Shown: positions 4,174-25,527 of the stretch, piece by piece | How positions within the stretch are numbered: the first letter of the stretch is position 1 | Layout of the letters: every line of letters starts with the position of its first letter | DNA from: a virus | Strand: one strand, 5' to 3' | DNA: 64,000 nucleotides | IMG/VR virus record: IMGVR_UViG_3300042894_006927 | Span: 15,790 to 79,789 of that record | Translations under genes and position numbers: made by a program | Notes under the pieces: generated by a model | The model's database searches: none | The model's input: the letters and a program-made list of their open reading frames with translations, nothing else | What the model was told of the DNA's origin: nothing

Positions 4174-7140
4174 ATGAACTCATACGGACTTGTATTTGGT
4201 GGAGAAAAAACAAGCCACGATAGCGGAAACGATATTGCCTACCAAGTTGTAGCAGGAAATAATTACTCCCAAGTTGTAATTGAGGGCGATGAATATATCC
4301 TGCCAAAAGAAGCAATGCAATCCGAAAAAGTTTACGACTTTGTGGATAAATTGCCTATTGAAATGCTTGACGAAATTAAGCGTTCCGAGAATGTATTTAT
4401 TCAGTTTCCAAATTTACGGCAGGGGGATATGGTTGTCTGCAAAAATTCGGTTCGGAATGATGATTTGCACACAATTAAAGGAACTGCGAAAGAAATTGGA
4501 AACTACCTTCAAGGGCTTTCAGCGTGTAGAATGTATGCGAAAGGCGGTTACATTAGCGGTGAACTTGCCAACGGGGGCGGGGTAGAAGATGAAAGTCAGT
4601 TGCGTTTGCTTACCCCTATGCCACCGACAAAACTTGGCAAAACGGGCATTGATTCTCTAACTGAAATCATTGGAAAAGATAAAATGCGACCTGCCTTTTC
4701 GGGGGCGTTATATGCAGGTAAGGGAAGAATAGTTGCCACCGATGCAAACATATTGGTTGTTCTTGAAAACCAAAACTATCCGAAATCACTTGATGGAACA
4801 ATTAAATCTTTGTGGAATAAAGTGCCACAAGAAAGGTTGGTTGGTATTCCTTATCCAAATTGGGAAGCGGTTGTACCAAGCCAACAAAATTTTCAGACAA
4901 AAGAACTATCAATAGACGATGTTCTCGCCTATGCGTATGGGGGGTTTTTAGAGGGCAAAAAAATTATTAACGAAAAGGATTTTAACAAATACCAAAAAGA
5001 AGTATTCAAATACATTTTACGATTAAACATTGGGAACATTGAAATTGGCGTTGATTCGTTGTTGCTTACCCGTATTTTAAGGACTTTAAAGGCGAATGAT
5101 GTTCGGAAGATTGTTTTTCATATTGGGCAAACAAATCAAAGACCAATCAAAATAACAACCGACAATAAACACTATGGGTTAATAATGCCCGTAATGATTG
5201 CTGATAAAGTTGAAGATTTAGGAGAAGCCATTTATGTTAGTCAACAAATTTTTTACCCTATTTCGGAGAAGGATTTTAGGGCAATGTCAAAAAAATATGG
5301 CGAATACTTAACCGAATTTTCAAAAATGGTTGGGGGTGAAAGAATGGCAGAAGGTGGAGAAATTACTATGAATATGCCGCTTCTGATTCGTGTTTTGGAA
5401 TTGGCTAAAGAGGATGTGAAAGAGGACAAAGAAATTCATTTTATAGCAGAAAGGTTGCAGTCAATCGCAGACAAAGGCACTTTGACTATGGAAGATTACG
5501 ATTACATTTCGGGGTTGGAAAGTAACGACAAAATTCAAAAACTGATTGCCGAAAATGATAGTAACGATTCCGATTTAAGGTTTGAGCAGGGCGGGGAAGT
5601 AGAGGATTTAATAAGCAGAGGAATTGTTGACTTGAAAATGTACGATACAATCCCAAAACACGCAAATGAATATGGTTTGCAATGCCTTAATCCATTGTTT
5701 GTTCAAACTATTTGCGTAAGTGAACCAAAAAGATTAAAAGGTTTAGGCACAAAAGTATTATCGTACATTGAAAAATACGCAATCGAAAATGGACACGATT
5801 TAATTTTTGGTCATATCATTCAAGAAGCAAAATTTACTAAAGACGAAAGACAAACATTTTTTTGTGATATTGATATGATTAAGAATTGGTTGCACTCAAA
5901 CGGATATGCAATCAGGGATGAAAATAATGATTTTCATAAATTCATTCAAAGTAATAAGTTAGAAGGTGGAGGTAGCGTTTTGTTAGCCCCAAACGGAAAG
6001 CCGAGCAATTTAACCCCCGAACAATGGCATTTAGTCCGAACCCACGAATTTAAAGCGTGGTTTGGGGATTGGGAAGCCCTTGAAAACGCTAAATTAAGGG
6101 ATAAGGGAATGGATGAAGTTACCTTGAAAAATTTGGCATCGGATGTTTCAAAGGTTGTTGATGAGAATGGTGAGCCGTTGGTGGTTTATCACGGAGGTTA
6201 TATTGATTTTAATGTTTTTGATATTGATAAGACAGCAAATAAGAGATTTTATTTTACCCCAAGTAAAGAGTACGCTGAATTTAGAGGGCAAGTTTCTAAA
6301 GCGTATTTCTTAAAGATTATAGAATTATATTATGTAGATTGGCAACAAGGGAGAACTTTACAAAAACCAAAAGGTAAATTTTCGGGTTATGCTAATTTAC
6401 TAAATGGTATAAAAAATCTTAATGAAATAATTGTTTTTGAACCTACCCAAATCAAACTTGCCGATGGTAGCAACACTACATTTGATTCCAATAACCCCGA
6501 TATAAGGTTTGAACAAGGCGGGATGTTAGAAAATGGTGTTGGAGGGGAGTACGATAGTTTATATGCTTTTCTTTATTGGCACAAAGAGTACATCCCAATT
6601 TTCGCTAAAAAATACGGCATAAACGAATCGGAGTGGGAAGATTTTGTTAGTGGGGAATTGGGATATGATAAAGAAATTTTGCAAAACATTTTGGGGGATG
6701 GGTACAAACTATTTTACGATGAAGAAAAAGATATGTTTGAGGTTTCAGAGAAAAGGAAGCGAAAAAAATCGGGCAACTATAAAATAGAGAAAGTTTCAAG
6801 TAAAAATGAAAAACAAGTTTTGAGAATAATTAACGAGGAAATAGTTACCGAGTTAAAACCAAGATTAGCAGTTTTTTGGAATGATATGGTTGTGGGTGGT
6901 TCTACTTATGAATTTAAAAATGGCACATATAAATTTGACTTGGCTATTTTACCCGAATATCAAGGGCTTGGAATTTCAAAAGGTTTGATTCAGTCAATTA
7001 TTGACGATGCAAAAATGCTAAAAGCAAAAAGTTTGGAAGCAGAGGTTGTAAACAAAAAGTTGCTTTCATACCTTCAATCAATAGGGTTTTCGGCATACAA
7101 ATCTCAAGGTCAAGATTTTGCTTTCTTATCTCTAAAATAA
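4174..7140 (+). CDS. Polyvalent polyprotein: beta-clamp-like domain, GNAT, ART-PolyVal-like ADP-ribosyltransferase, GNAT; modules separated by xxGG motifs
   Basis: RPAFSG..VATDAN..YPNWEAVVP..GLIMPV (clamp); RLKGLGTKVL and EYQGLGISKGL (GNAT acetyl-CoA loops); EFKAWFGDW..GEPLVVYHG..FYFT..VFEPTQIK (ART-PolyVal). Confidence 0.75.
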   Translation: MNSYGLVFGGEKTSHDSGNDIAYQVVAGNNYSQVVIEGDEYILPKEAMQSEKVYDFVDKLPIEMLDEIKRSENVFIQFPNLRQGDMVVCKNSVRNDDLHTIKGTAKEIGNYLQGLSACRMYAKGGYISGELANGGGVEDESQLRLLTPMPPTKLGKTGIDSLTEIIGKDKMRPAFSGALYAGKGRIVATDANILVVLENQNYPKSLDGTIKSLWNKVPQERLVGIPYPNWEAVVPSQQNFQTKELSIDDVLAYAYGGFLEGKKIINEKDFNKYQKEVFKYILRLNIGNIEIGVDSLLLTRILRTLKANDVRKIVFHIGQTNQRPIKITTDNKHYGLIMPVMIADKVEDLGEAIYVSQQIFYPISEKDFRAMSKKYGEYLTEFSKMVGGERMAEGGEITMNMPLLIRVLELAKEDVKEDKEIHFIAERLQSIADKGTLTMEDYDYISGLESNDKIQKLIAENDSNDSDLRFEQGGEVEDLISRGIVDLKMYDTIPKHANEYGLQCLNPLFVQTICVSEPKRLKGLGTKVLSYIEKYAIENGHDLIFGHIIQEAKFTKDERQTFFCDIDMIKNWLHSNGYAIRDENNDFHKFIQSNKLEGGGSVLLAPNGKPSNLTPEQWHLVRTHEFKAWFGDWEALENAKLRDKGMDEVTLKNLASDVSKVVDENGEPLVVYHGGYIDFNVFDIDKTANKRFYFTPSKEYAEFRGQVSKAYFLKIIELYYVDWQQGRTLQKPKGKFSGYANLLNGIKNLNEIIVFEPTQIKLADGSNTTFDSNNPDIRFEQGGMLENGVGGEYDSLYAFLYWHKEYIPIFAKKYGINESEWEDFVSGELGYDKEILQNILGDGYKLFYDEEKDMFEVSEKRKRKKSGNYKIEKVSSKNEKQVLRIINEEIVTELKPRLAVFWNDMVVGGSTYEFKNGTYKFDLAILPEYQGLGISKGLIQSIIDDAKMLKAKSLEAEVVNKKLLSYLQSIGFSAYKSQGQDFAFLSLK

Positions 7141-7144
7141 AACA

Positions 7145-8671
7145 ATGCAAGTTTTTGAATTAACATTTTACCGAGTTGCAATACAAGGGAATGATTATTC
7201 TGAAATTATTTATGAAGGCATAAATTTCGATTATGCGAAAATGGAATACGATTCGGTTAATATATCGGATTTCCAAGACGATTTTGGCGGTGTGGTTGAA
7301 CTTGAAAAATTTGATAGGTTGTATGAGTATATTTACGATTTAGAGGATTTAGAGGATTTCCCATTTTTAAAACATTATGCCGACAATTCCTTATTTAAGG
7401 AAATAGATGAAACCGAAATTGAAACACTTTTTCAGAGAAGGGTTGACTACATAAACCAACAAAGTGATGAACTATTGAGCAGGGTTCAACAACACTATTT
7501 TCAAATTTATGGCGATTACAAATACAATAACATTCCCGTTACTAATGGTTTGCCCGAAGATGATGATGATTTTATTGAATTTGGTTGTATTCAATTAAGG
7601 TTGGCAGACCATTCCGAAAACCTACAAAACGTAGATAGGTTTGGCGTGTGCGATTATTACATTTCAGTAGTGATTGCAGATAAAAATGCAACAAAAGAGC
7701 AATTTTTTTCAAGTAAATTTGAAAGGCGAAAAAATGAAGTTGAATTGTACTTTGATTCAGATTCAAATTTCGATGAAATTATTGATGAAATAGAAGATAG
7801 AATTGAAAATGCAAGAGAACTTATTATGCCTAAATACGAGCAAAATAACCAAATGAAAATGGGGGGCAAATTAAATCCTTCAAAAACTCCCGCACCAATT
7901 AAAGAACGGGTTTATGGAAGCAAAATAAACAAGCCCGAATCTTCGGCATCGTTAAGGTCTGCTTCTGCAATAAAACTATCTTCCGAAAACATTTCAACGC
8001 TGAATAAAAAGGTATTGGAATTTAAGTCAAAATACATTAACCGAAACAAGAGAATGACACTTAATGCCCTAAAAGCGGTAATGCGTAGGGGTATGGGTGC
8101 TTATTCTTCAACACACCGACCAACAATTTCGGGTGGCAAACCAAATTCAAGGGTTGCTTGGGGATTAGCAAGGGTAAATGCCTTTTTGTTCAAAGCAGAA
8201 AATGGCAGACCAAAAAACCCAAAATATGTTCAAGATGATGATTTATTGCGTGAATTGGGATATAAGTTTGCTATGCAAATGGGCGGTGGTGTTTATCTTC
8301 CCGAATTGTACGATTTTGATGAAAGCGAATTAAAAAAAGGCGGGGAAATTTCCCCCGAAAAGTTTAAGATGCCAAACAAAGAGGTTTTGGAATATGGGGA
8401 TTTTTTGAAAAAGAATCACCCGAAAGTGTGGAAGGCGGGGGGAAACATTTTCGGAAACCAAGCATTTGAGAACTTGAAGCGGGTAAGCAATAGGGGTTAT
8501 TGGCTTGAAAGTGAAAGGTGGATGTATGAAAAATGGCAATCATTTGTAAAACGGCATCAACATAATCACCTTCTTGCAGGGATTATCGCCAATGTTAAGT
8601 GGGCTTCTTGGGGAAATATCGGAAAAGCAAAAGCGAAATCGGTAATTGAAAATGCTTTTTCCGATAATTAA
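7145..8671 (+). CDS. Modular protein: acidic N-domain plus two virion-type domains separated by xxGG motifs
   Basis: MKMGGKL, MQMGGGV, LKKGGEI junctions; LKAVMRRGMGAYSSTHRP..AWGLARVNAFL domain. Confidence 0.65.
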   Translation: MQVFELTFYRVAIQGNDYSEIIYEGINFDYAKMEYDSVNISDFQDDFGGVVELEKFDRLYEYIYDLEDLEDFPFLKHYADNSLFKEIDETEIETLFQRRVDYINQQSDELLSRVQQHYFQIYGDYKYNNIPVTNGLPEDDDDFIEFGCIQLRLADHSENLQNVDRFGVCDYYISVVIADKNATKEQFFSSKFERRKNEVELYFDSDSNFDEIIDEIEDRIENARELIMPKYEQNNQMKMGGKLNPSKTPAPIKERVYGSKINKPESSASLRSASAIKLSSENISTLNKKVLEFKSKYINRNKRMTLNALKAVMRRGMGAYSSTHRPTISGGKPNSRVAWGLARVNAFLFKAENGRPKNPKYVQDDDLLRELGYKFAMQMGGGVYLPELYDFDESELKKGGEISPEKFKMPNKEVLEYGDFLKKNHPKVWKAGGNIFGNQAFENLKRVSNRGYWLESERWMYEKWQSFVKRHQHNHLLAGIIANVKWASWGNIGKAKAKSVIENAFSDN

Positions 8672-8705
8672 AATTGTTTACTATCTTCGTAAAAATCAAT
8701 TTAAA

Positions 8706-9197: not shown

Positions 9198-9198
9198 T

Positions 9199-12100
9199 AT
9201 GGCTGACGAACAAAACATAAACGAGGAAGGAAACGCCCAAAATCCAAATTCTGCACCCGAAGTTGGAAATGACCCAAAGCCAAATGTTGAGGGGGATTTA
9301 GCGGCAGATATTTTAAGTACATCGGAAAGTTTAGACGACACCGAAAGCGAGGATTTTGATTTTCAAGATTCTTCTCAAAAACTTTATCCGTATAAGTCGG
9401 CAAGTAATAATCCGATAAAAGTGGGCGGGGCTTTTATCCCTTTAACGCTTACTGCTGAAACGACAACTGCTTTAAATAAAATGAAGGAAGCGGTTGGCGA
9501 CATTGATGCCTATATCGTTGAAAAACTCGGATATGACACGAAAACTGATGTTTGGCGTAGTTTCGCTTCCGAACAAATAGATGCCATTGCCTTGCAGATT
9601 TTTTCTTATGAAACCGATGGCTCTGCAATTATTTTGGGCGATATGGCGGGAACGGGAAAAGGAAGGGTTTGTGCGGGAATTTGTCGTTATGCGTATTTGC
9701 AGGGGCTTATGCCACTTTTTATTACTGAAAAAGCAAACCTATTTTCTGACTTTTACCGAGATTTAAACGACATTGGTGGATTTCCTAAACTAAACCACCC
9801 CGTAGCGGGTAATTTGCCCATTCCTTTGATTTTAAATGCGGGTTCAAAAGAAAAGATTGTAAATAAGGACAATTCAAGAATAAAGCCATCATCAAAAGCG
9901 GGTTCAAATGATATTTATGAGCCGAGAAAAAATATAGCGATGAGGTATGATGAAGTGCCGTTGTTATTTACCGCACAAAAGCAAGAAATACTATCTCGTT
10001 TTTACAAAAAAAACGAACTGCCCCGAAACTATCAGTTAATGGTTGCGACTTATTCACAATTTCAAGGAAAAGGAAGCGATTTAAGGGAGAAATTTGTCAA
10101 GAATAATGCAGATAAAATTTTTGTTATTTTAGATGAAAGCCACAACGCAGCAGGGGAATCTTCGGTTGGCAGATTTTTTCAAGAAATTTTGCCAATAGTT
10201 AATGGTGCTATGTTTTCGTCAGCAACCTACTCAAAAAGGGTTTCAAACTTAAAAATATATGCCCTGCGAAACGCTATGAGGCAGTTGGGTTCGATAAATT
10301 ATATTTCACAAGTTCTTGATAACGGCAGAGATAGATTAAATGAATACATTGCTACGGGTTTGGCAGAAGCAGGACATTTATTAAGAAGGGAAAGAAGTTT
10401 TGGAGATTGTCAGATAGACACGAAATTAGTTCAGAAAAGTGAGGAAGAAAGGATTTTTGAAGAATACGACAATGCCGTTAGGGGCTTCATTCAATTAAGG
10501 GATTTTTTGAAAAGTGATATTTACCAAAATGCCGTTGCTTCTTTAATTCAAGAAGTAATAGATAATTACAATTCGGAAAACAATACTTATATTTCAATAG
10601 CACCCGAATATGATAAAAATGCTCACGGAACGAGGGCAATGTATAATCAAAGATATACGGGGTTTTACACTCAATATGAAACATTTGGAATTGTAGGCAA
10701 AAACCATTTCAATTATATTGAGCAGTTATTGTTTAGCGTAAAAGCGGAATCCGTAGCAAAAATAGCAGTTGAAGAATTGCAAAGGAATCAGCCCGATGCC
10801 GATAGGGATGGTATTATTGCCAAAACAACTGACCCAATTCAACGACCAAAAAACTATACATTAGGTGCAACGAAACCAATCATTGCGGTTAAAAACACTC
10901 TTGAATCAATTTTTAAAAAGGTTGGAATTACGGAGGGCAAAATAGTGGATAGAGGGGATTTTGGTATTTACTTTCAGTATTTATTGGCATCAATTTATTC
11001 GGGAAGCGTAACCTTTAAAAAAATAGGTGGTAATAAACCCGAAACAATAACCTTTAAAGACCTTGAAATTAAAGTAACCCCCGATTCCACTTTAGATAGA
11101 GAACTCAAACGGGTAACTGAAATTCTTTTGGGATTAAAGTTTACTGCACCGCTTTCCCCTATTGACACAATAATTCAGAATGTTGAAAGTGAGAGGGCTA
11201 ATCAGCCAACGCCATTTTCTGCTATCGGGGATAATTTTACCTGCCGTGAAATTTCGGGAAGGAAAACAATGTTCATAAAGTTGCCCGATGGTAGATTTCA
11301 ATTAGTTAAAAACTCAAAAACCGAAAACAATGTTGCTTCGGCATTTCAAGCGTTTAACGATGGCAGAACTGACTTTTTAATCATAAATAAATCGGGTTCT
11401 ACGGGTGCTTCCGCACACTCAAGCCCACAATTTAAAGACACAAGACCGAGAACGCTTTTAATCCACCAAGTAGAGTTAAATGTTCAAACCGAAGTGCAAA
11501 AAAGGGGAAGGGTAAATAGAACGGGGCAGTTGTGGTTTCCGAGATACATTTACATCATTTCGCCTATTCCTTCCGAAACAAGGCGTATGATTATGCTTAT
11601 GCGTAAGTTGAAAACGCTTGATGCCCTTTCTTCGGGCAATCAAAAGCAATCAGAAGCAATGACAACAATTCAAAGTTCCGCAGGAGTTAAAATTCGGGAT
11701 TTTATCAATAAGTACGGGTGGAAGGCAGCAAGACCGATTTATTTAGAAATGCTTGGAAGGAATAGCGTAAACAATGATTCCAACGCTATTATATTAAACA
11801 ACGACCAAATTGCTTCATTAGAAAAATATAGTGAAGAAGATGAAAATGGAGAGGATGCTATGCAGTTGCTTATGCGATATATGGAATTGCAATTTACAAG
11901 TGTCCAAATTGAATTTTACAATAAATCGAATACCGCATATTTTGAATTGTATCAAAAAATGGATGAAAACGGCACTTGGGATTTGGACACCGAGTATCGT
12001 GATTTTCAAAGCGTAACAAGAAATAGGTTTGAACTTGTACCGCCAAAAGGAGAGGGCGTTTTTAATCAAGGCGTATATGTTGAGGATTGTGCGATTACTG

Positions 12101-14004
12101 CCGATGATAAGCGTTTGACAAAAGATACTTTAAAAAAGGAAATAGCAAAAGCACTTGACAATAATACCATTACTGAAAAAGTGAAAAAAGAAAGGGTATT
12201 AAAGTCAATAGAGCAGTCCAAAGAAACCTATCTTAATTATAGAGTAGAAATTTTTTGGGCTTCGGCTAATGTTAATTTGGGCTTAATCACCGATGATGAA
12301 GAAAGAAACGCAAAAAGGCAAGAATACGAGGAAAGGTTAGTTTCTGAAATACCAATTTGGGAATTTCCATTTGATAGGGCTTTGGCGTTAATAAATTCGT
12401 TAATTGGCATTAACAAAAACTACAACGCCCTTGATGTTATCGCTATGGAATCATCGCTTTTTACGGGTAGTGGTGGTGGTCAAAACAACATTTATGCAAG
12501 GGCTAAATGTATTGACATAAAAGTTGCCAAAATACCCGAAGATAGACCCGTAAAATACAATACTATTGCAGAATTTTCGGTTGTTTTCGCTTATTATGAT
12601 GGGCTTTCAACAAAAATTGAGGTAAATCTTTTTAATAGAGATTTTTATGAATTATTAAGTGCAATTACTATTGAACGAGAAAACGCAGAAATTGATGAAT
12701 GGCAAATCAGACAAAGAACGAGAGTTAATGCAAGGTTTCTAACGGGCAACCTATTTAGGGCGTATGCAATATCTTCAAACTACATAACCTACAACAACGA
12801 AAAAACAAGAATAGATAGAAACAAAATAATCGCTACGAGGAAAGATTTTGTTCGGTTTTCAGAGTATGGGGGTAGAGGTTTGAGGTACGGCATTAGATTA
12901 TACACGCAGAATCCAAATGTACCTAAATTAAAAGGGGAGATTTTTAGTGTGTTGCCACCAAAATTCGTTTCCTTTGATAGTGAGTATTTTATTGATTTAA
13001 TGTCGTCATACAAATATAGGGATGTCCTTGTAAAAGTTGATGCCGATACCCCACTATTATTTTTGGGGTTGAACGGATATGGTAATGGGCAATTTTTCGG
13101 AGGAATAGATAGGGAATTTGTAGTTGCTTTTTTTACAAAAGGAAGAAAAAAAGAAATAAACAACCCGTTTTTGCAGGATAGCGATTGGAGAAATAAAATG
13201 GGTTTAGGCAGGTATTTTTCGGAAGGTTATAGAACCCAATACCGAAGGAGTGCTGACCAAAGGTTTTCTTCTTTTGAGGTTACATACACGAACATCGGCT
13301 ATCATTTAACGAGAAGCGAAGCAGAATCGTTTTGCAAGTATTTAGCAAACTATTACACGATTGATTTGGCATTAGACACCAATGATGAAGGTTTGATAGA
13401 AGTAATTTCAGATGAAGATACTTTTTCTTCAAGCGGTTTTCAGACAATCGAAAGAGAAGCCCCCGATTTTGGGTTTGTTTTTGTTGGACATAACACAAAC
13501 GACCTATCTTCGCTTTTTGCGAACATTCCCGAAAGCAAACCTGCAATAAATCAAGGCGGTATTTGGCAAATTTATTTGTCTAAATTTCCTTCTGCATATC
13601 AACTGATGCAATATGATTTATGTGTTCCTAAAAATAGGGTAACACCTAAACTTGTAATTGACTTGATTTTAGAGGTTTTGGTTCAAGATGAAGCATTGAA
13701 ATATAGGTTTTTAAAAGAACTAAAAGACGCTATTAACGATGGCTCTGATGATGCCACTATCTACAACCGAACTTTCAATCTTATTTATCTTAAATTTAGC
13801 AATGAGGAAAGCATCTTCGGACTAAATACCGATATTGATGAAAGGGGGGAACTTTTGAGATTAGGGTTTGCAAATGCCGCAGACGAGGGGCAACCACTTG
13901 TTGCCGAAGAAGAATCCCGTTCCGAAATTAGGAAATTGGAGTTAAACCTTCTCAATGCTCAAAAATATATGATACTTTTAGAGTTTATGACGAAAAAAAT
14001 GTAA
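9199..14004 (+). CDS. Strawberry-notch/DarB-like SF2 helicase-domain protein
   Basis: EQIDAIAL, GDMAGTGKGR (Walker A), ILDESHN (Walker B), FSSATY, SGSTGASAH, QKRGRVNRTGQ (motif VI). Confidence 0.85.
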   Translation: MADEQNINEEGNAQNPNSAPEVGNDPKPNVEGDLAADILSTSESLDDTESEDFDFQDSSQKLYPYKSASNNPIKVGGAFIPLTLTAETTTALNKMKEAVGDIDAYIVEKLGYDTKTDVWRSFASEQIDAIALQIFSYETDGSAIILGDMAGTGKGRVCAGICRYAYLQGLMPLFITEKANLFSDFYRDLNDIGGFPKLNHPVAGNLPIPLILNAGSKEKIVNKDNSRIKPSSKAGSNDIYEPRKNIAMRYDEVPLLFTAQKQEILSRFYKKNELPRNYQLMVATYSQFQGKGSDLREKFVKNNADKIFVILDESHNAAGESSVGRFFQEILPIVNGAMFSSATYSKRVSNLKIYALRNAMRQLGSINYISQVLDNGRDRLNEYIATGLAEAGHLLRRERSFGDCQIDTKLVQKSEEERIFEEYDNAVRGFIQLRDFLKSDIYQNAVASLIQEVIDNYNSENNTYISIAPEYDKNAHGTRAMYNQRYTGFYTQYETFGIVGKNHFNYIEQLLFSVKAESVAKIAVEELQRNQPDADRDGIIAKTTDPIQRPKNYTLGATKPIIAVKNTLESIFKKVGITEGKIVDRGDFGIYFQYLLASIYSGSVTFKKIGGNKPETITFKDLEIKVTPDSTLDRELKRVTEILLGLKFTAPLSPIDTIIQNVESERANQPTPFSAIGDNFTCREISGRKTMFIKLPDGRFQLVKNSKTENNVASAFQAFNDGRTDFLIINKSGSTGASAHSSPQFKDTRPRTLLIHQVELNVQTEVQKRGRVNRTGQLWFPRYIYIISPIPSETRRMIMLMRKLKTLDALSSGNQKQSEAMTTIQSSAGVKIRDFINKYGWKAARPIYLEMLGRNSVNNDSNAIILNNDQIASLEKYSEEDENGEDAMQLLMRYMELQFTSVQIEFYNKSNTAYFELYQKMDENGTWDLDTEYRDFQSVTRNRFELVPPKGEGVFNQGVYVEDCAITADDKRLTKDTLKKEIAKALDNNTITEKVKKERVLKSIEQSKETYLNYRVEIFWASANVNLGLITDDEERNAKRQEYEERLVSEIPIWEFPFDRALALINSLIGINKNYNALDVIAMESSLFTGSGGGQNNIYARAKCIDIKVAKIPEDRPVKYNTIAEFSVVFAYYDGLSTKIEVNLFNRDFYELLSAITIERENAEIDEWQIRQRTRVNARFLTGNLFRAYAISSNYITYNNEKTRIDRNKIIATRKDFVRFSEYGGRGLRYGIRLYTQNPNVPKLKGEIFSVLPPKFVSFDSEYFIDLMSSYKYRDVLVKVDADTPLLFLGLNGYGNGQFFGGIDREFVVAFFTKGRKKEINNPFLQDSDWRNKMGLGRYFSEGYRTQYRRSADQRFSSFEVTYTNIGYHLTRSEAESFCKYLANYYTIDLALDTNDEGLIEVISDEDTFSSSGFQTIEREAPDFGFVFVGHNTNDLSSLFANIPESKPAINQGGIWQIYLSKFPSAYQLMQYDLCVPKNRVTPKLVIDLILEVLVQDEALKYRFLKELKDAINDGSDDATIYNRTFNLIYLKFSNEESIFGLNTDIDERGELLRLGFANAADEGQPLVAEEESRSEIRKLELNLLNAQKYMILLEFMTKKM

Positions 14005-16642: not shown

Positions 16643-16651
16643 TTTTACGAT

Positions 16652-16912: not shown

Positions 16913-19065
16913 TTGATAAGCAAAAACTAATGAGTTTGACACAATTTGGTGTTTCGGAGAATGATATTAAAAGGTCGTTCCCCGAAACCTCTTATTTGTT
17001 TATTGCTTACGATGATGAAGGCGTTGTCCAATCAGTACAAAACATTCTCAATATAAATGAAACTTTTTTAATTGAAAAAATAAAGAGAGAAAGGGTAGCC
17101 AAACATTCAATACTGAAATATCCCTTTAATCCGCTAAATACGGCATTTTACAATTACTGCCTTTATATTTCAAGCCCTTCGGATAGAAGTGCTTTTGACA
17201 ATATGTATATTGGTTGGGTAAATGAATACTTAACAAAAAAAGAAAACGAAACAAAATTTGGAAATTCAGTTTATGAAATTGAGTTTTCGGGTTTAGATTC
17301 AGACATTCAAAAGTTTTGTTACGAATTTGTCTTGGATAACGAAAAAGGGGGAATGGTGCTTGACATTCTCTATTTGCTTCAAGCAAAATCAAAACTAATG
17401 GGTATGCCTTTGTTTGGAAAGATTATTTCAAAGGCGGTAACATCAGTTTATTTTGAGGGAATCGGTCTGCTTCCCGAATATGAAATCAGCAATATGCACT
17501 ACCTAATTGGGGGTTTTCAATCAAAAGTTGCCGACAAAGAAAAATTTGATGAAGCAAAAAAATTGGCAAGGCAGGGTATGGATATTGATGTTATTGCTTC
17601 AAAAACGGGTTGGATTTTAAATGCACCCGATGGTAAGCCCCGATTTGTGATTCCAAATGAAAAAGCAAATTGGAAAAAGGAAGCCCAACTTTATAGCGTA
17701 ACAAATTCCGAAATGATTTTGGCGTTAAAAGACCCAAGCGATAGAGTAAAAAATGATTTCGGTTTTGGATTTTCAAATAGTAGGCATCTATTAGAGTTTC
17801 CCAAACTCGGAGAAATTTTAGATTTTCCCGAATTATTCAACGCATATCCGCACTTTGAAAACATACCCATTTGCATTGGCGTTTCAAGAAGTTTAAGTGG
17901 CGGTACAAGAGGTGCTTTTTCGGACACCCCCGTAAAAAACATTTCTTCTATTCGTGAGGGGGATTGGAACGATGTTAGCAATTCAGTTTTAAGTACGCTT
18001 CTGCACGAAATACAACACGCAATCCAAGAGGAAGAAGGGTTTTCGGGAGGCGGGAACACTTTTTTTTCAAGGTTGGCTATGGCATCGGGGGTTGATTTTT
18101 ATAGAAAATATAGAATCATACTGAACGACTTTGAAAGTGTGTTCAAAGAAAGGGCTTTAAAAGAAAATGCTAAACAAGAGTTCCAAAGTGCTTTTCTTGA
18201 TAATCCTAATTTCAGCGAAATACACGATTATTTTAAGGGATTCTCAACAAGCGAATTGGGGCAATTTGCATCAATGTTTTCTTTTTGTTTCTTAATTATT
18301 TCATTGAGAAAGAACGAGCAAGAATTTATGAATTTTGCGAATACTGCGAGGGAGTTTATGTATGCTTTTAGCGGTATGGAAGAAACCCCCATATTTGCAA
18401 AATTGGTTAATTCTACGAAAGAAGTAAATGCTAAATATGACAATTTAAGAAGGGATTGGATTTCAAGGGGCTATGATGATAACGACTTAAATGCCATAAG
18501 TTATGCCTACTATTTATCTTTTGGCGGGGAGATTGAAAGCCGATATGTTCAGCAAAGTTTTTTCCAAAGAGTACCCGTAGAACTACAAAAAAAATTGAGG
18601 TTTTTGTCGTATGAAAACACGATTAACAACCTTTACATTTTTGACAAATCTTCTACTGCGGTAAAAAGCCAAAATGCCTTTGAAACTGCAAAAGGCAAAG
18701 GGGGCATATTACACCTTACAAAATCAGAAAACGCTTTTATTTTGCTTCACGAAGTAGGACACGCAGTTTATGATTTACTTATTAAGGCAAATTCATCAAA
18801 TGAAATTAAGTTTGTAAACGCCTTTGAAAACGAATCGGAAATTGTAAAAGAAAGGGGTTATTCCGAATTTTGTGCTAATTCTTTTGTTTCTTACTTGAAA
18901 AGGAAAAAAATTGAAGAACCCTTGACCAAGTATTTTAGATTGGAAGATAATATAGGGGTTGAACTTAATGCCCTTTTTGAAAAGTTTTTAAATTACGAGG
19001 TTGAAGATGATTATTCGGAAAAAGTAGAATTGTATCTTCAATATCTAAAAGAAATGCAAAAATGA
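16909..19065 (+). CDS. Large polyvalent protein: LPD23-like domain plus zincin metallopeptidase-like domains
   Basis: IASKTGW..DGKPRFVI, LGEILDFPELFNAYP, LLHEIQHAIQEEEGFSGGGN, GEIESR; second HExxH LLHEVGH. Confidence 0.75.
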   Translation: MIDKQKLMSLTQFGVSENDIKRSFPETSYLFIAYDDEGVVQSVQNILNINETFLIEKIKRERVAKHSILKYPFNPLNTAFYNYCLYISSPSDRSAFDNMYIGWVNEYLTKKENETKFGNSVYEIEFSGLDSDIQKFCYEFVLDNEKGGMVLDILYLLQAKSKLMGMPLFGKIISKAVTSVYFEGIGLLPEYEISNMHYLIGGFQSKVADKEKFDEAKKLARQGMDIDVIASKTGWILNAPDGKPRFVIPNEKANWKKEAQLYSVTNSEMILALKDPSDRVKNDFGFGFSNSRHLLEFPKLGEILDFPELFNAYPHFENIPICIGVSRSLSGGTRGAFSDTPVKNISSIREGDWNDVSNSVLSTLLHEIQHAIQEEEGFSGGGNTFFSRLAMASGVDFYRKYRIILNDFESVFKERALKENAKQEFQSAFLDNPNFSEIHDYFKGFSTSELGQFASMFSFCFLIISLRKNEQEFMNFANTAREFMYAFSGMEETPIFAKLVNSTKEVNAKYDNLRRDWISRGYDDNDLNAISYAYYLSFGGEIESRYVQQSFFQRVPVELQKKLRFLSYENTINNLYIFDKSSTAVKSQNAFETAKGKGGILHLTKSENAFILLHEVGHAVYDLLIKANSSNEIKFVNAFENESEIVKERGYSEFCANSFVSYLKRKKIEEPLTKYFRLEDNIGVELNALFEKFLNYEVEDDYSEKVELYLQYLKEMQK

Positions 19066-21176
19066 GTGCCGAATTAAACGAAAACGAGTTCGATTTATCG
19101 CAAAAAGCCGTTGGTATTTCTATCGGTGGTTCGGGTAGTGGTCAAACTCAAATCGGTGGTAGTGGTGGAAGCGGAAGCGGTGGTAGTGGTGGAAGCGGAA
19201 GCGGTGGTAGTGGTGGAAGCGGAAGCGGTGGAAATGGTGGAAGCGGAAGCGGTGGTAGTGGTGGAAGCGGAAGCGGTGGTAGTGGTGGAAGCGGAAGCGG
19301 TGGAAATGGTGGAGAAGGTGGAAGCGGTGGTAGTGGTGGAAGCGGAAGCGGTGGTAGTGGTGGAAGCGGAAGCGGTGGTAGTGGTGGAAGCGGAAGCGGA
19401 AGCGGTGGTAGTGGTGGAAGCGGAAGCGGTGGAAATGGTGGCGAAAATGGAAATGGTGGAAATGGTGGCGAAAATGCAAATGGTGGGGATGAAGAAGATG
19501 GCGAAGAAAACCCTGCCGAAGAACAAGAGGAAGGGGATAGCGAAGATGAACAAAATTCGCAAAACGATAGCAGATTAGGGCAACGATGCGTAATAATTTA
19601 TCCCAAAGAATTTGCGGGGCGGTTGGGTAATATAAAAAGGGTTATTTTTAAGGGTAAATCCGACACGCCAATAGAACCGAGAAACATAGATGGGTACACT
19701 CTTACATATCCATCAGAAACCGAATTTACTTTGTTTGAGGTAGAATATATCAATGAAAATGGGAAGTTAGAAGAAGGTTCTTTTATGGACATTGATGTTC
19801 TATTTGAAAATCAAGAATTTTTTGTAGTCGTTGACGGGGGTCAAGTATTAGAAGCGGTTTGTAGCGGTTTTGTTGAATCTGATAGAAACCCATATAAATT
19901 TTTTATTAAAACGGAAAATGGGCAAGTTTTTCCTGCGTTTAGGTGCTTTGTTCAACCCCAAGAAAAAAATGAAAACGAAAACGATGCCGAAGATGGGGAA
20001 AGCGATGAAGATGAAGATACCCAAGATAATGAGCAAGAAAATTCTATTGTAGGAAAAGAATTTGTTTTATTACGGGATAGTTTTACACACAAATCGGGGG
20101 AAAGGGGAACTATTCTTTCGTCATTAGGCGAGAGAATGCTTGAGGGCACGGAAGAATATGTTGTCAATGGTCATCGGATTTTTTACCCAATAGGAACATA
20201 TTATAGTGCTTATCGTGTCGCAATAGGAGATAGCAACTTTATTATCAACGACTTTGATTTTGTATTTGTAGGCGAAGAAGTAAGTTTTGTGATAAGTGAT
20301 GCAAACGAATATGGTTTACAAGAGGCAATCTATAATGGTTATAGTGTATTTGGATTTATTGAAGATTCACCACAAAATTTTTTGTTAGCATTAGATAGCG
20401 ATAACCCATCGTTGATTAAAACCGATATGTGTTTTGTTTCGTTAGAAACGATTGCGATTAGAAACCAAAGGCAAGATAGCCAAGATGATGATGATGATGA
20501 TGATGATGAGCAAACACCCGAAAACGAAGAAAATGTTTTTGTGGCATCCTTATTTTGGAATTATGTACTTAATGAGAGGAAATTAAGCGGGGATGTTTTT
20601 ACGGCTGATATAGACGAAAATTTTAGAGAGGTTACAAACGAGTTGTCTTTCCTTCGTAGTTTTCCCGCAAGTTTGTATGATGAATCAGTAATTTATAGCA
20701 AAGAAACGAAAGAATACGGGTATCTTACAACAAACGAATTTGATGTAAACACAATTCAAACCATTGATTATTTTGCAGTTACCAATTTCAATTTGTTTGA
20801 ATCGGTTATTTACCGAAATAATCCAAAAGAATTAAATTTTACCTATGTTGCCCTAAAGTATGTTTTGGACAATTTAAAAAGAAAAATGTTTTTTGTGCCA
20901 ACATATCAAGTAAATGAGGAATCGTTCTATATTATGGTTTACGAAAAGAGTGAGGATGAAATTATTGTAGTTACCAATTACGAGAAATTTAGCGTTAGAA
21001 AAAACGGGTTGGGCGATTATTTACACTTAATTGTTCATTTAATGAATTGGGCATACCTTAATAGGTTTGAACAAAATTTGTTTTTAGATTTCAAAAAACA
21101 AACCCAAAATTTACTCAAGCCAAACATTTTTTACGCAAAAATTTTTGAAGATTATTGCAAGGCACTTACAATCTAA
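19062..21176 (+). CDS. Acidic multidomain protein with N-terminal Gly/Ser-rich linker
   Basis: (GGSGGSGS)n tract, then beta-rich domains separated by D/E tracts. Confidence 0.7.
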   Translation: MSAELNENEFDLSQKAVGISIGGSGSGQTQIGGSGGSGSGGSGGSGSGGSGGSGSGGNGGSGSGGSGGSGSGGSGGSGSGGNGGEGGSGGSGGSGSGGSGGSGSGGSGGSGSGSGGSGGSGSGGNGGENGNGGNGGENANGGDEEDGEENPAEEQEEGDSEDEQNSQNDSRLGQRCVIIYPKEFAGRLGNIKRVIFKGKSDTPIEPRNIDGYTLTYPSETEFTLFEVEYINENGKLEEGSFMDIDVLFENQEFFVVVDGGQVLEAVCSGFVESDRNPYKFFIKTENGQVFPAFRCFVQPQEKNENENDAEDGESDEDEDTQDNEQENSIVGKEFVLLRDSFTHKSGERGTILSSLGERMLEGTEEYVVNGHRIFYPIGTYYSAYRVAIGDSNFIINDFDFVFVGEEVSFVISDANEYGLQEAIYNGYSVFGFIEDSPQNFLLALDSDNPSLIKTDMCFVSLETIAIRNQRQDSQDDDDDDDDEQTPENEENVFVASLFWNYVLNERKLSGDVFTADIDENFREVTNELSFLRSFPASLYDESVIYSKETKEYGYLTTNEFDVNTIQTIDYFAVTNFNLFESVIYRNNPKELNFTYVALKYVLDNLKRKMFFVPTYQVNEESFYIMVYEKSEDEIIVVTNYEKFSVRKNGLGDYLHLIVHLMNWAYLNRFEQNLFLDFKKQTQNLLKPNIFYAKIFEDYCKALTI
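19155..19487 (+). repeat. Coding tandem repeat, 24-bp unit GGTGGTAGTGGTGGAAGCGGAAGC (GGSGGSGS), about 11 imperfect copies
   Basis: Seen directly. Confidence 0.9.
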
Positions 21177-21197
21177 AAAAAATCTTAATTTTACATT

Positions 21198-21620: not shown

Positions 21621-21709
21621 TGAAACTCGTTTTTAGCAAAATAAAAAGGTTGCTTTCAACAACAAAACACCACATTGAACTATCAAAATCCCTAAACAAG
21701 TTTTAAGTT

Positions 21710-23092
21710 ATGACCAAGTTAGAATTACAAAACAAAATAGCCGTTTTAGAAAAAAACATTTCAAAAACGAAGAATCCTACATCGTTGGCTATATTGCAAA
21801 AAAACATTGAAGATGCACGAAAAAAACTTGCGGCACTTGAACAAGGCACTCCCGCACCCGCCCCAAATGGCGGTTCTTCTGAATTGGAAAAACTTTATGC
21901 TCAAAGGGAAACATTAAAAAAGGGTTTAAGTAGTTCCAATCCCGTTGTTCAGAAATCAGCAAAAGCGGCACTTCCAAAAGTTGAAGCCCGTATTGCTGAA
22001 TTAGAAGGGGCATCACCCGCCCCCGCACCTGCGAAGCGTATGCCAAAATCAAAGGCAGAAAAACCCGCTAAAACAACCGCAAAAAGAGGTCGCAAACCAA
22101 AGGCAGAAACCCCCGCAGAGGAAAAACCTAAAATCAAGCGTGGTCGTAAGCCAAAAGCCGAAACCCCCGCAGAGGAAAAGCCAAAAGTCAAGCGTGGTCG
22201 TAAGCCAAAAGCCGAAGCCCCCGCAGAAATACCCGTAGCAGCCGTAAGGCGTGGTCGTAAGCCAAAAGCACCTACCGAAACCCCCGCAAAAGCCCCCGCA
22301 AAGCGTGGTCGCCCCGCCCTTCCAAAAGGTGCAAAAAGCCAAGAAGTTTCAATAGATTCTCTAACTAAATTGGCAAATGCGTTAGTTGAATTTTGCATTG
22401 AAAACGGCATATCAAACCCAAGCGTTTCTGATTTGCAAGGAATCCTTAACCTTCTTGACAAAGGAAAGGCATTAAAATTTGCCAAAGGCGGTAAAATTTC
22501 CAAAAGCGGCAGTTATCTCTCTAAATGGCAAATCAAAGAAATTCTTACCGATGGCGGTATGAAAATAGGCTCTGATGAATTACTTTCGGGAGTTTGGTTA
22601 AAAAAAAAAGATAGTGGTGTAGCCCAAATGCGAATGGGCGGTGAAGTTGGGTACTTCGTTATTGATGATGATATTCTTGATAGCGGAAAGTCCGTAATGC
22701 TCGGCAATCGTAGAATTTCTGCAAAAAACAAAAAATTTCAAGGCGTTTTTGAAGGAAAAATGGTCGGTGGCGTAATGAAAGTTTACGACTACGATGATGA
22801 AATGTGGAAAGTAGTTAATCCCGATGAATGGCAACAAGCGTATGCCGAAGGTGGCGAGGTTGGAAGATTTCATAGGGGAAGGTCGGTTATGGTTGCAGAA
22901 GAAAATGACAACGAAAACTACGACAATTTTAGAGGTAAAGAGTTGGTAATAACCGAAAAATTTACAAACTCTAAAGAAAACCCATATTTTGATGAAGGGC
23001 TTTCGGGTATGGCACTATATCATTTAATGGAGAGAGAAACGGGGAAAAAAATTCCTTTTGCCCTTTATGATTATGAATTGGAAGCATACTAA
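21710..23092 (+). CDS. Putative DNA-condensing core protein with AT-hook-like repeats plus xxGG-delimited modules
   Basis: Five (K/R)RGR(K/P) repeats in an Ala/Pro/Lys-rich region; FAKGGKI, MRMGGEV, YAEGGEV. Confidence 0.7.
   Translation: MTKLELQNKIAVLEKNISKTKNPTSLAILQKNIEDARKKLAALEQGTPAPAPNGGSSELEKLYAQRETLKKGLSSSNPVVQKSAKAALPKVEARIAELEGASPAPAPAKRMPKSKAEKPAKTTAKRGRKPKAETPAEEKPKIKRGRKPKAETPAEEKPKVKRGRKPKAEAPAEIPVAAVRRGRKPKAPTETPAKAPAKRGRPALPKGAKSQEVSIDSLTKLANALVEFCIENGISNPSVSDLQGILNLLDKGKALKFAKGGKISKSGSYLSKWQIKEILTDGGMKIGSDELLSGVWLKKKDSGVAQMRMGGEVGYFVIDDDILDSGKSVMLGNRRISAKNKKFQGVFEGKMVGGVMKVYDYDDEMWKVVNPDEWQQAYAEGGEVGRFHRGRSVMVAEENDNENYDNFRGKELVITEKFTNSKENPYFDEGLSGMALYHLMERETGKKIPFALYDYELEAY
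22082..22320 (+). repeat. Coding repeat with 54-bp period encoding KRGRKPKAETPAEEKPK
   Basis: AAGCGTGGTCG at 22136 and 22190, with further degenerate copies. Confidence 0.85.
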
Positions 23093-23094
23093 TT

Positions 23095-25527
23095 ATGCAA
23101 CACCAAGATTCATACATTGTCGTAAAGGAATTTACTGACAACGGAAAAAAAACGAGAGAGGTTATTGCAACGGGAGTAACCAAGCAAGGCTTTATTGATG
23201 CCTACACCGAAAAAGGTTGTGTAATGAGAGGGGGCGAAAACCCCCATTTTGAGGACATTTATTCGGGTATAATTTACAAGTTGGAAAAAGAATTTGAGCA
23301 AGGCGGTCAAATTGATAGGGAAAGGGATATTCAGATTGCCAAAACAATTTTGATGCAAATGGGTGGCTCAAACCGACTGCAAATGTTTACGGGGGCATAC
23401 AATTTTGTGGCAGTACCCTATGGGGTTTCATTTCGGATTAAAAACCGAAGCGTAAACTATGTGAAAATTGTGCTGAACGCAATGGACACTTACGATATTG
23501 AATTTGGGCGAATTAGTGGGGTAAACTACAAGATTGTAAAAGAATTAAGCGGAATCTACAACGACCAATTAGTTGAAATTTTTACCCGTTATACGGGAAT
23601 GGTTTTGCGTTTAAGAAAAGGCGGTGCAATTCAAGGGGAAGAAAATGCCGAAATGGTTATGAATCAAAACCTACAAATTCGCCACCACACCGAAGAATTA
23701 GAAGAAATCCTAAAATCGGGAAAGGAAGTTCCTGCTTGGGTTGTTTCAAAAGTTAGCAGGGCGGCAGATAGTATGTCAGATGCCACACACTACCTTGAAG
23801 GAACACCCGATAAAATGGAAAGGGGTGGGAATACAAGAATTGTAGATATTTCAAAACTGAAAACTTATGTTTTGACTTATATTCCCGTTTTTGACATTAA
23901 ACGGGCAATGCAAATAAAGCAAAAAGCGGTTTACGCAGAAAGCGAGGAAGATGCCATTGCCCAACTTCCAAGAACGGCAAAAGTAATTTCAATAAAAGTT
24001 ACTTCGGGCGGTGGTCGTGGCATACCCCAACGACAAAGGGGGCGTGGAGAATCACAATCTCAAAAAATTCGGAAAGAAATAAAAGCGTTAAAGGAAACAT
24101 TGCCCTTTTTGGAGGGTAAAGACAAAAAACAAATTGAAGATGAAATCAAAAACCTAAATGATACATTGGATGAGATGGATACATTGGATGAAATGAGGGC
24201 GGAAGGACAATATGCCGAAGGCGGAGGGGTTAATAAAATGGCAATGGGCGGTGAGGTTTCCAAACAATATGAAGACATACCTAATACAACATACCAACTA
24301 AAGATTAAAGTTTATTATGACAAGGGGGGTATGAACTATTATTCGGGGGGGACAAACAAAAGAGGTTATTACCTTTCAGTTACACCCGTTCAAATTGAAA
24401 GGCAAGGAAATAATGTGATGATTGAATCATATACGGCATTTTCGGGCATAAAAAAGTTAATTTTAGAAGTAGAAAGACAAAGCCCAAAATCGGCTGAAAA
24501 AGCAAAAGAACTTGCCGAATCTTCAATTTCCGAATTAAAGCAGTATGTTTTAAATCAAATGATTGAAAGAGGCGAAATACCACAAGCCCTTCCTATGCCC
24601 GAACCCGAACCAATGCCCGATGAAGATGAAATAAACCCCGAAGAAATTAGGGCTGAAATCGTAGCGTTAGAGCAAGTTTTAGAAGTGTTGGAAGGAGAGG
24701 ATAGGCAATCAATCCAAGAGGAAATCGAAATACTAAAACTTGCATTGGAAGGAATGGGCAATTATGCCAAAGATGGGGATAGCATAAAAAATTGGTACAC
24801 AAGCACATACCCTTCCGATGATTTGGGCGAAGAATTAAACCCCGATGCTAAATTTAGTGGATTAGAAGAAAATTTGGCAGACATTTACACTTATTTGGGT
24901 GTTGCCGATTCGGTTGTTCGTGAAAGAGTTTTTGAAAGATATTCTGAAATTTTTAATAAGCCATACGAATATATTTACGACAAGTGGGTTAAATCGGAGA
25001 AATTTGCCAAAGGTGGCGGGATTGGTGAATTGCCCCCAAAAGGAGAATTAACCAATAAAGATAATTTTCTGCTCAAATATGAAAAAAAGGGTGGCGACTA
25101 CGAATTTTACATTTACAAACCCGAAACAAAAAAAGTTAGTGGATATAATCAAGTAAAGCATATTTGCGTAAATTCAGATTGCCCACACAAAATGACTTAT
25201 GAGCAATTTTTAAATTACTTGTATGCAGAATTGTATTTAGATAATATGAAATATGCCAATGGCGGTGAAATTTTTGTATGCCCCGTTGGAACTGAAATCC
25301 AAACTTTGATTTTTGACAAATCAATGTTTAACCTTCGGGAAGCAAAAGCGTGGGCAAAGAAAAACAATTTTGAAAACGCTTATGTTGATGGCAAATTAAA
25401 CACTTTGCGAATACGACAAAAAGACCCCGCTATGTTTACCGAAGATGGATTTAGAACAATTCAATTAAGGCAAGGCGTTCAAGCAGTAATTGGTTGCCCG
25501 AAGCGTAAAATCAGCAGAAAAAAATGA
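23095..25527 (+). CDS. Polyprotein of about 8 small modules separated by xxGG motifs
   Basis: FEQGGQI, LRKGGAI, MERGGNT, YAEGGGV, MAMGGEV, (YAKDGDSI), FAKGGGI, YANGGEI. Confidence 0.7.
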   Translation: MQHQDSYIVVKEFTDNGKKTREVIATGVTKQGFIDAYTEKGCVMRGGENPHFEDIYSGIIYKLEKEFEQGGQIDRERDIQIAKTILMQMGGSNRLQMFTGAYNFVAVPYGVSFRIKNRSVNYVKIVLNAMDTYDIEFGRISGVNYKIVKELSGIYNDQLVEIFTRYTGMVLRLRKGGAIQGEENAEMVMNQNLQIRHHTEELEEILKSGKEVPAWVVSKVSRAADSMSDATHYLEGTPDKMERGGNTRIVDISKLKTYVLTYIPVFDIKRAMQIKQKAVYAESEEDAIAQLPRTAKVISIKVTSGGGRGIPQRQRGRGESQSQKIRKEIKALKETLPFLEGKDKKQIEDEIKNLNDTLDEMDTLDEMRAEGQYAEGGGVNKMAMGGEVSKQYEDIPNTTYQLKIKVYYDKGGMNYYSGGTNKRGYYLSVTPVQIERQGNNVMIESYTAFSGIKKLILEVERQSPKSAEKAKELAESSISELKQYVLNQMIERGEIPQALPMPEPEPMPDEDEINPEEIRAEIVALEQVLEVLEGEDRQSIQEEIEILKLALEGMGNYAKDGDSIKNWYTSTYPSDDLGEELNPDAKFSGLEENLADIYTYLGVADSVVRERVFERYSEIFNKPYEYIYDKWVKSEKFAKGGGIGELPPKGELTNKDNFLLKYEKKGGDYEFYIYKPETKKVSGYNQVKHICVNSDCPHKMTYEQFLNYLYAELYLDNMKYANGGEIFVCPVGTEIQTLIFDKSMFNLREAKAWAKKNNFENAYVDGKLNTLRIRQKDPAMFTEDGFRTIQLRQGVQAVIGCPKRKISRKK

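Follow-up and report, generated by a model that had tools for sequence, protein, structure and literature searches.

Adenain, the adenovirus protease, cleaves (M/L/I)xGG-x sequences, and the SUMO-like protease of African swine fever virus (ASFV) cleaves core polyproteins after Gly-Gly. In phages and conjugative elements, polyvalent proteins combine 2-15 unrelated effector domains in a single chain, and processing of such proteins by zincin peptidases has been proposed (Iyer et al. 2017, PMC5512222). Phages are believed to carry them into the cell as a prepared set of anti-defence weapons. In the main text of Iyer et al. 2017 the words "linker" and "glycine" do not occur, and none of the 14 listed uses of "motif" is about a junction peptide (PMC5512222). 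Among tape-measure proteins, a maturation cut has been mapped after R1127 in pb2 of phage T5 (Linares et al. 2023, PMC10038345), and gpH of phage lambda matures to gpH* and a C-terminal peptide of ~14 kDa, gpHC, for which the exact site and the catalyst were reported as unknown in 2025 (PMC12617516). Here we describe a short peptide motif, [FYMLW]xxGGx[VILM], which recurs between the modules of large proteins encoded in a stretch of 64,000 nucleotides (hereafter the window), namely bases 15790-79789 of the single 79,789-bp IMG/VR virus contig IMGVR_UViG_3300042894_006927 from an uncultured bacterial virus. Crossovers at this motif insert and delete modules and move them from one genome or gene to another, and the motif may in addition be a site of proteolytic processing. 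Positions are those of the window, and open reading frames (ORFs) are named by their first position.

Motif-bearing proteins and their relation to polyvalent proteins

Four plus-strand ORFs were analysed as motif-rich. ORF 4174 (4174-7140) encodes a protein of 988 aa with clamp-like, acetyltransferase-like, ART-PolyVal (PF18760, 1.5e-12) and GNAT (7.9e-9) modules, recognised from Pfam matches and PHROG blocks, and contains YAKGGYI (4534), LANGGGV (4564), YAYGGFL (4930), MAEGGEI (5344), FEQGGEV (5581), LEGGGSV (5959), and FEQGGML (6508). The 508-aa product of ORF 7145 (7145-8671), which has no confident family match in Pfam or PHROG, carries MKMGGKL (7853), MQMGGGV (8273), LKKGGEI (8330), and WKAGGNI (8429). 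ORF 21710 (21710-23092, 460 aa) encodes a coiled coil and five to six KRGRKPK AT-hook-like repeats followed by small modules, with copies FAKGGKI (22478), MRMGGEV (22628), and YAEGGEV (22841) that are invariant in alignment A1. The longest series of copies is found in ORF 23095 (23095-25527), an 810-aa string of about seven modules, with FEQGGQI (23293), LRKGGAI (23611), MERGGNT (23815), YAEGGGV (24211), MAMGGEV (24238), FAKGGGI (25003), YANGGEI (25252), and a decayed copy, YAKDGDSI, at 24763. Outside these four, the 164-aa membrane protein of ORF 41680 (41680-42174, plus strand) consists of a transmembrane helix, FEKGGGM (41776), a Cys-rich domain, WAKGGAI (42109), and a short tail. An earlier note, made from the letters of the window, had listed most of these strings, and a coordinate check found them in place; YAYGGFL (4930) and WKAGGNI (8429) match the pattern as well although the note did not list them, and one entry, ARMGGRM at the end of ORF 37218, is no true copy, having Ala rather than a bulky residue three positions before Gly-Gly.

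Judged from their domain content, the motif carriers are polyvalent multi-effector proteins as defined by Iyer et al. 2017. Several unrelated effector domains share a chain in ORF 4174 (ART-PolyVal, GNAT, and more), the approximately seven modules of ORF 23095 are separately folding and separately distributed, and the signature domains of polyvalent proteins are present, including ART-PolyVal, LPD23 (PF18838), and a neighbouring SNF2-type helicase. The likeness thus covers ART-PolyVal, LPD23, GNAT and the SNF2-type helicase as well as extensive domain mosaicism, whereas the MPTase-PolyVal peptidase domain (PF18818) found no match in the 79.8-kb contig, which instead has a stand-alone putative zincin (ORF 35206) and two HExxH sequences in ORF 16909. 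A further difference concerns RadC-type JAB domains, which Iyer et al. 2017 list only for conjugative elements (PMC5512222) but which occur here in phage-type polyvalent proteins: a RadC-JAB module was found in ~9 of 172 motif-rich homologues, including the ortholog in the related locus L003, and in one protein of the phage contig G001, while RadC-type JAB (PF04002) had no match in the contig of our virus. The module (HNHPSGxxxPSxxD) was seen between seams in L003 (5027-8668), G001 (61271-63442), and the proteins P0060, P0064, P0095, P0106, P0107, P0126, and P0163.

Enrichment and residue preferences of the motif

In the four ORFs (2,766 aa in total), the strict pattern [FYMLW]xxGGx[VILM] occurs 20 times versus 0.80 +/- 0.89 in 1000 per-protein shuffles, none of which reached 20, so the motif is well above background. 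A tighter pattern also gives 20 observed copies, versus 0.15 expected, and again no shuffle among 1000 reached the count. The remaining 23,022 aa of the genome contain 14 copies versus 5.7 expected, and this excess mostly comprises Gly-Gly within transmembrane helices (such as LLIGGGV and WIIGGVI). Both flanking features accompany 19 of 37 Gly-Gly dipeptides in the four ORFs versus 13 of 163 in the rest of the genome.

A HMMER search with ORF 23095 returned 6,664 proteins at E <= 0.001, in which stretches of the query match at differing places in proteins of 68 to 2,271 aa. Among the 150 best representative homologues (mutually <50% identical), 146 contain the motif, with 986 copies in total or 8.75 per 1000 aa. 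A logo built from 769 copies reads K-[YFM]-A-[KDE]-G-G-x-[VI] and holds no information beyond these eight positions. Relative to background, the residue before A-x-G-G-x-[VI] is enriched for Tyr (8.4x), Met (10.5x), and Phe (5.2x) and depleted of Leu (0.4x) and Ile (0.1x), and Gly-Gly is present at 329 of the 401 [YFM]-A-x-??-x-[VI] sites. These preferences at the level of residue classes imply that the peptide is under protein-level selection. The combination of Tyr/Phe/Met but not Leu/Ile, followed by Ala, an invariant Gly-Gly, and Val/Ile, fits recognition by a protein pocket and not a neutral spacer. Neighbouring copies are most often 60-100 residues apart (median 84), with a minor class at <20 residues.

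Searches of cultured phages with tblastn returned isolated single modules only (ART, and the module at residues 72-173 of ORF 23095 in KVP40-like phages) and no motif-rich protein. Locus searches among viral contigs with single proteins or with alignment A1 found no relatives, and a metagenome scan gave four loci. A literature search retrieved no paper that gives the motif strings in connection with phages, and nothing relevant on virion proteins of phages being processed at Gly-Gly.

The motif lies between independently folding modules

The 210 local homology blocks of ORF 23095 have ends that pile up at the motif copies (residues 67, 173, 241, 373/382, 637, and 720) and also at the decayed copy YAKDGDSI (residue 557); the single block boundary without a motif is a PEPEP linker near residue 500. 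Confident AlphaFold2 domains span residues 74-172, 181-239, 320-372, 512-556, 562-634, 645-714, and 736-801, the predicted local distance difference test (pLDDT) score drops to less than 50 precisely over residues 173-180, 557-561, and 635-644, and the remaining copies are located within longer low-confidence stretches (25-73, 240-282, 373-450, and 715-735). Since block ends and pLDDT dips both coincide with the copies, the motif sits in flexible linkers between independently folding modules. Similarly, the ART block of ORF 4174 (residues 595-781) is flanked by copies at 596 and 779. The placement at domain boundaries proposed in the earlier note is therefore borne out by homology-block ends as well as by low-confidence segments, with YAYGGFL (4930), which falls inside a PHROG match of ORF 4174 (residues 153-340), as an exception. 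If the seam marks module borders in general, it would allow domains to be parsed from sequence in thousands of unannotated phage proteins.

Modules are exchanged at the motif

In relatives, modules have been inserted between motif copies. All three copies of ORF 21710 are retained in 19 metagenomic homologues, several of which add between one and four modules behind the third copy before continuing with the same C-terminal module, and most of the extra modules in these relatives end in [FY]A[KEN]GGG[VI]. Protein blocks shared with L002, L003, P0058, and P0059 (72-93% identity) reach no further than residues 245, 633, or 632, where motif copies lie, and in L003 approximately 330 extra residues, including the RadC-JAB module, are inserted after the first copy.

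The same holds at the DNA level when block ends are taken from blastn comparisons with the relatives L001, L002, and L003. Homology to all three ends at 22854-22863, inside the YAEGGEV copy of ORF 21710 (22841-22861, plus strand), and further block ends or starts were found at 23306 and 23315 (FEQGGQI, 23293), 23828 (MERGGNT, 23815), 24213 (YAEGGGV, 24211), 25006 and 25009 (FAKGGGI, 25003), and 25255 and 25267 (YANGGEI, 25252). Hence 6 of 8 distinct DNA breakpoints lie at motif copies, the only exceptions being 24181 and 24608. The single module between FAKGGGI and YANGGEI (25003-25272, plus strand) illustrates movement between genes: its segment 25009-25267 shares 84.6% DNA identity with a module at 3554-3812 of L003, and the L003 copy, which is likewise motif-bounded, sits in another gene, the ortholog of ORF 21710.

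Codon usage was compared between the motif and the remainder of the same genes. The motif Ala is encoded by GCC in 21 of 29 cases (72%) versus 82 of 391 (21%) elsewhere (p=1.5e-8), the first motif Gly is never GGA (p=1.3e-6), and the third Gly codon is GGG in 18 of 21 cases (86%) versus 16% elsewhere (p=2e-13); copies from the window itself show this bias less strongly. The resulting DNA consensus (~20 nt) is TAT GCC AAA GGC GGT GGG GTT GG. A degenerate 23-mer derived from the motif copies, TAYGCCRANGGYGGTGGGGTTGG, matches G001 twice, a phage contig of 29% GC with no detectable module in common with our virus.

Because DNA blocks end at the copies, a module has moved to a neighbouring gene, and the codons are biased, the motif is a recombination seam, which agrees with the suggestion of the earlier note that it acts as a junction for domain swapping. 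The codon bias together with the conservation of residue classes indicates that the seam is kept both as peptide and as DNA, as would be expected of an in-frame microhomology recombination site. Such a crossover point explains the in-frame exchange of effector repertoires.

Comparison with phage maturation cuts and a proposed model of processing

The sequence of T5 pb2 at its mapped cut is FVPR|AEGGMMYPG, the sole A-x-G-G-x-hydrophobic site in its 1,219 aa. As R1127 precedes AEGGMM, the T5 cut lies directly before Ala and not after Gly-Gly, and the A-x-G-G-x-hydrophobic core that directly follows it resembles the A-x-G-G-x-[VI] shared by copies in the window. In lambda gpH (NC_001416 gene H, L011), FATGG at 733 and YATGG at 778 are located outside any Pfam domain, within the C-terminal part that is removed at maturation, and only ~0.015 such copies are expected by chance. 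A cut before A734 of gpH is predicted to release a fragment of 12.5 kDa versus the ~14 kDa reported, and the seam thus offers a concrete cut-site hypothesis for gpH and similar proteins. Of the systems studied experimentally, these tape-measure cuts are the nearest precedent. There are also differences, in that pb2 and gpH, which hold no more than two copies, serve tailed phages as tape measures, while the carriers described here are polyvalent proteins, and that pb2 has Arg where the window proteins have Tyr, Phe, or Met. Several representative proteins start with M-A-x-G-G and, minus the initiator Met, would have the N-terminus expected of a pre-Ala cut, which is a matter of consistency and not evidence.

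By this analogy, a cut at the seam would release the modules, be it inside the particle or once the proteins have been delivered to the host, and it may fall just before Ala, as in T5 pb2. The most likely enzyme would be the putative zincin of the morphogenesis module (ORF 35206), with the HExxH protein of ORF 16909 as a second candidate.

Candidate proteases

ORF 35206 (35206-36003, plus strand) encodes a putative zincin of 265 aa (HELSH ... EEEAD), the best protease candidate in the window, whose C-terminal part matches Pfam PhageMetallopep (9e-4). A word-based search found just four close relatives of it, and an alignment-based scan of IMG/VR found 51 loci with the zincin. A homologue of the Zot/FtsK-type packaging ATPase encoded in the same morphogenesis module (ORF 29166; 29166-30080, plus strand; Pfam Zot 2.1e-6, PHROG terminase-like/Zot) is found no further than 10 kb from the zincin in 43 of these 51 loci, and the zincin therefore belongs to a conserved morphogenesis module. 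Only 5 of the 51 loci have an ORF with at least three motif copies in the +/-10 kb around the zincin, which by itself would seem to count against a link. Of five further zincin contigs that were read whole, four (G007, G009, G010, and G011) carry ORFs with 8-24 copies elsewhere, and the fifth is a 55%-complete fragment. The association was also seen from the opposite direction in G001-G004, which were retrieved through motif DNA only: in G001, the two motif-rich genes flank one for a full-length zincin homologue (29% identity, E 2e-20), and G002, G003, and G004, whose ORFs contain 14-19 copies, all encode the zincin (E 1e-47 to 1e-82). Three of these contigs (G001, G002, and G004) have no detectable homologue of our virus's packaging ATPase. 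In total, the zincin and motif-rich proteins occur together in 9 of 10 contigs examined, which is circumstantial support for ORF 35206 as the seam protease. A predicted complex between the zincin (A4) and residues 360-400 of ORF 23095 scored 0.00 and is evidence neither way.

The second candidate, ORF 16909 (16909-19065, plus strand), belongs to the same operon as the motif carriers and encodes an LPD23 protein of 718 aa (Pfam LPD23 1.1e-7), in which a scan for HExxH found HEIQH at residue 366 and HEVGH at residue 614. The first is invariant among homologues (HEIQHxIQxxEGF) and the second nearly so (LLHExGH); across 12 homologues, H366, E367, H370, and E376 do not vary. No Pfam peptidase family matched this protein, and searches of the PDB with the sequences of ORF 16909 and ORF 35206 gave no match. 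Distant homologues of ORF 16909 carry PF18819. Another HExxH sequence, HEIAH at the contig end, was rejected because it lies in no ORF.

In the earlier note, ORF 35206 and ORF 62999 had been named as the proteases to be tried. The former gains the circumstantial support described above, and the latter gains none. ORF 62999 (62999-63406, minus strand) encodes an LRAT/H-box-NC-like protein of 135 aa (NHFGVYI ... FFDCEDF) with a C-terminal transmembrane helix, lies among replication genes, and is more likely a lipid-acting enzyme than a seam protease. A Gly-Gly endopeptidase of the M23 type beside the polyproteins was also considered and rejected, as ORF 25524 is a GDSL lipase and ORF 26144 only endolysin-like.

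Approximately 22 zincin loci encode a protein of 108-135 aa in which a Pro/Ala-rich leader (20-45 residues) and one motif copy (such as MAEGGET, FEEGGEL, or YEDGGAI) precede a transmembrane helix, with a charged coiled coil after the helix; the motif here looks like a leader junction. These small proteins recall the double-glycine leaders cut by C39 peptidases, which also have Gly-Gly with upstream hydrophobic residues; however, no C39 domain was found in our contig, the motif occurs repeatedly and inside the proteins, and its conservation extends past Gly-Gly. The small protein was seen ~8-10 kb upstream of the zincin in L015, L017, L019, L021, L022, L024, L027, L029, L043-L045, and L054-L058, and has no clear homologue in the window.

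Processing, tagging, or recombination

Proteolytic processing at the seam, which would release the modules, is an interpretation by analogy to which we give an even chance, and several observations weigh against it. No cleavage products have been observed for motif-bearing proteins. Some copies lie at the very start of a protein (MAKGG..., MKKYADGG...) and others close to its C-terminus, and pairs of copies are spaced ~9 residues apart, positions at which a cut would achieve little. In T5 pb2 the Ala is preceded by Arg instead of an aromatic residue, and the strong codon bias is a DNA-level force that could help maintain the motif without any cutting. Regarding the enzymes, the Pfam matches of the zincin are below the cut-off and both its fold and its specificity are putative, while its co-occurrence with the motif may merely reflect shared ancestry of one viral lineage. 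For the AlphaFold2 model of ORF 16909 (pLDDT 63), Foldseek found nothing in the PDB at E <= 0.001 and VIA-align returned helical bundles only (Z ~6); as these structure searches gave no peptidase, it is the invariant HExxH...E that points to a peptidase there.

Terminal and tandem copies would be sensible for a docking or packaging tag, that is, a peptide bound by some component of the virion or the delivery apparatus (capsid interior, inner membrane, or ejection channel), with multiple copies giving avidity and the proteins staying whole. The residue preferences suit a binding pocket, the membrane anchor of ORF 41680 is followed by a copy, as the anchor of the small leader proteins has one beside it, and the motif genes adjoin the morphogenesis module. 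Yet one tag per protein would do, whereas nearly every module border has a copy; moreover, T5 pb2 is really cut beside the same core peptide and no candidate receptor has been identified, and we consider tagging without cleavage rather unlikely. It might instead be supposed that the motif is a recombination seam and nothing else, a tolerated flexible linker that provides DNA microhomology for in-frame exchange and is not recognised by any protein. The breakpoints at the motif, the strong synonymous-codon bias within it, and the exact matches to the degenerate 23-mer in a 29% GC phage all agree with this. On the other hand, residue classes are conserved across homologues that are <50% identical although the codons of Tyr, Phe, and Met differ by two to three bases, the one-step codon neighbours Leu and Ile are avoided, the codons are less biased in copies belonging to the window, and linkers without the motif exist and recombine too (24608), so that an explanation confined to DNA seems doubtful to us.

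The earlier note had modelled processing on adenain and ASFV, in which case a clan CE (Ulp1-like) cysteine protease would cut after Gly-Gly. There is a likeness in the Gly-Gly consensus that punctuates viral proteins, with a bulky residue upstream, and the virus appears tailless, with a predicted packaging ATPase of the FtsK/Zot or FtsK/A32 type and a relative with inverted terminal repeats. However, no match to Peptidase_C48/Ulp1 (PF02902), adenain/C5 (PF00770), or C39 (PF03412) was found in the 79.8-kb contig (PF02902 and PF00770 at E <= 10), which is perhaps incomplete (46% by CheckV), and the spacing of the hydrophobic residue does not agree: the motif has the bulky [YFM] at P5 and Ala at P4, with Leu and Ile depleted, while the hydrophobic residue of adenain sites, like those of ASFV pS273R differently spaced from the motif, is at P4. 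Cutting after Gly-Gly finds no support in T5 pb2, the only mapped phage precedent, where the cut precedes Ala. We therefore regard maturation of the adenain/ASFV type as highly improbable.

Processing before Ala may be part of something broader. The seam could be what a conserved system for processing virion proteins recognises: effector strings and the leaders of membrane proteins would both be cut by the zincin at [YFM]|A-x-G-G, with the same code behind the lambda and T5 cuts and doubling as an in-frame recombination site. We put this forward as a tentative and rather improbable proposal, together with its taxonomic part, in which the lineage would comprise uncultured phages of 50-170 kb, many with an FtsK/Zot-type ATPase and at least one with inverted terminal repeats. 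If true, the seam system would be the bacterial-virus counterpart of adenovirus/ASFV core-polyprotein maturation.

Genomic context and lineage

A single long plus-strand gene block occupies 4174-47684. Its first part encodes large proteins with polyvalent-protein signatures in Pfam and PHROG scans and a MoxR-type AAA+ protein, and from ~25.5 kb the block runs into the morphogenesis module, which contains genes for a GDSL lipase, a lysin-like protein, the packaging ATPase (29166), the zincin (35206), and many small membrane proteins. The motif-rich polyvalent genes thus sit directly upstream of the morphogenesis genes, and the same synteny is found in L002 and L003. The helicase mentioned above, of the SNF2/Strawberry-notch and polyvalent-protein type, is encoded by 9199-14004 (plus strand; 1601 aa; Pfam Helicase_C_4 8.4e-21, AAA_34, and ResIII) and has no motif copies. 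The 15.8 kb upstream of the window carry primase and helicase genes. PHROG and Pfam scans of the window and of these 15.8 kb recognised no gene for a terminase, a portal, an HK97-type capsid, or a tail, nor a tape measure among the ~48 larger ORFs scanned, and a Protein Atlas search with the putative capsid protein 30284 gave no useful match.

CheckV estimates the completeness of our contig at 46%. Relatives that share the packaging ATPase and the zincin are 69-84 kb long at 90-100% estimated completeness, one of them with inverted terminal repeats, so the contig is probably closer to complete than this estimate. The zincin/ATPase loci L013-L063 come from contigs of 30-146 kb in which most structural genes have no PHROG match, and the complete 68.8-kb relative G007 was classed as having inverted terminal repeats. 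These loci appear to belong to a lineage of large, uncultured phages, itself of considerable size, without recognisable terminase or portal. In this poorly known lineage, which also has no recognisable tail genes, the zincin is a candidate maturation protease.

Additional features of the motif-bearing proteins

In ORF 21710, the region upstream of the motif copies (21710-22400) contains the coiled coil and KRGRKPK / RRGRP AT-hook-like repeats, the number of which varies among relatives in alignment A1. These variable repeats suggest that the product is a DNA-binding packaged protein. Weak matches (E 1e-6 to 1e-3) of ORF 21710 to glycogen-branching enzymes (PF02806; P0023-P0057) mostly cover ~5% of the protein in the best local alignment, and none of the matched proteins has the motif. 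ORF 19062 (first part at 19062-19500) begins with ~120 residues of (GSGSGGSGG)n followed by a body of 580 residues and has no family match. Among the homologues, a C-terminal [FW]xY[STE]IGGL directly before the stop marks the end of an unidentified terminal module in P0162, P0166, P0171, P0185, P0188, P0200, and P0204. In the motif-rich ORFs of L040 and L050, a basic repeat of ~35 residues (...RRQ.NKSE.WEKPMSQRKN-[FY]DNGGGV) precedes many seams, and several of these proteins share a C-terminal module ending in ...KxYLRPEYKRI.

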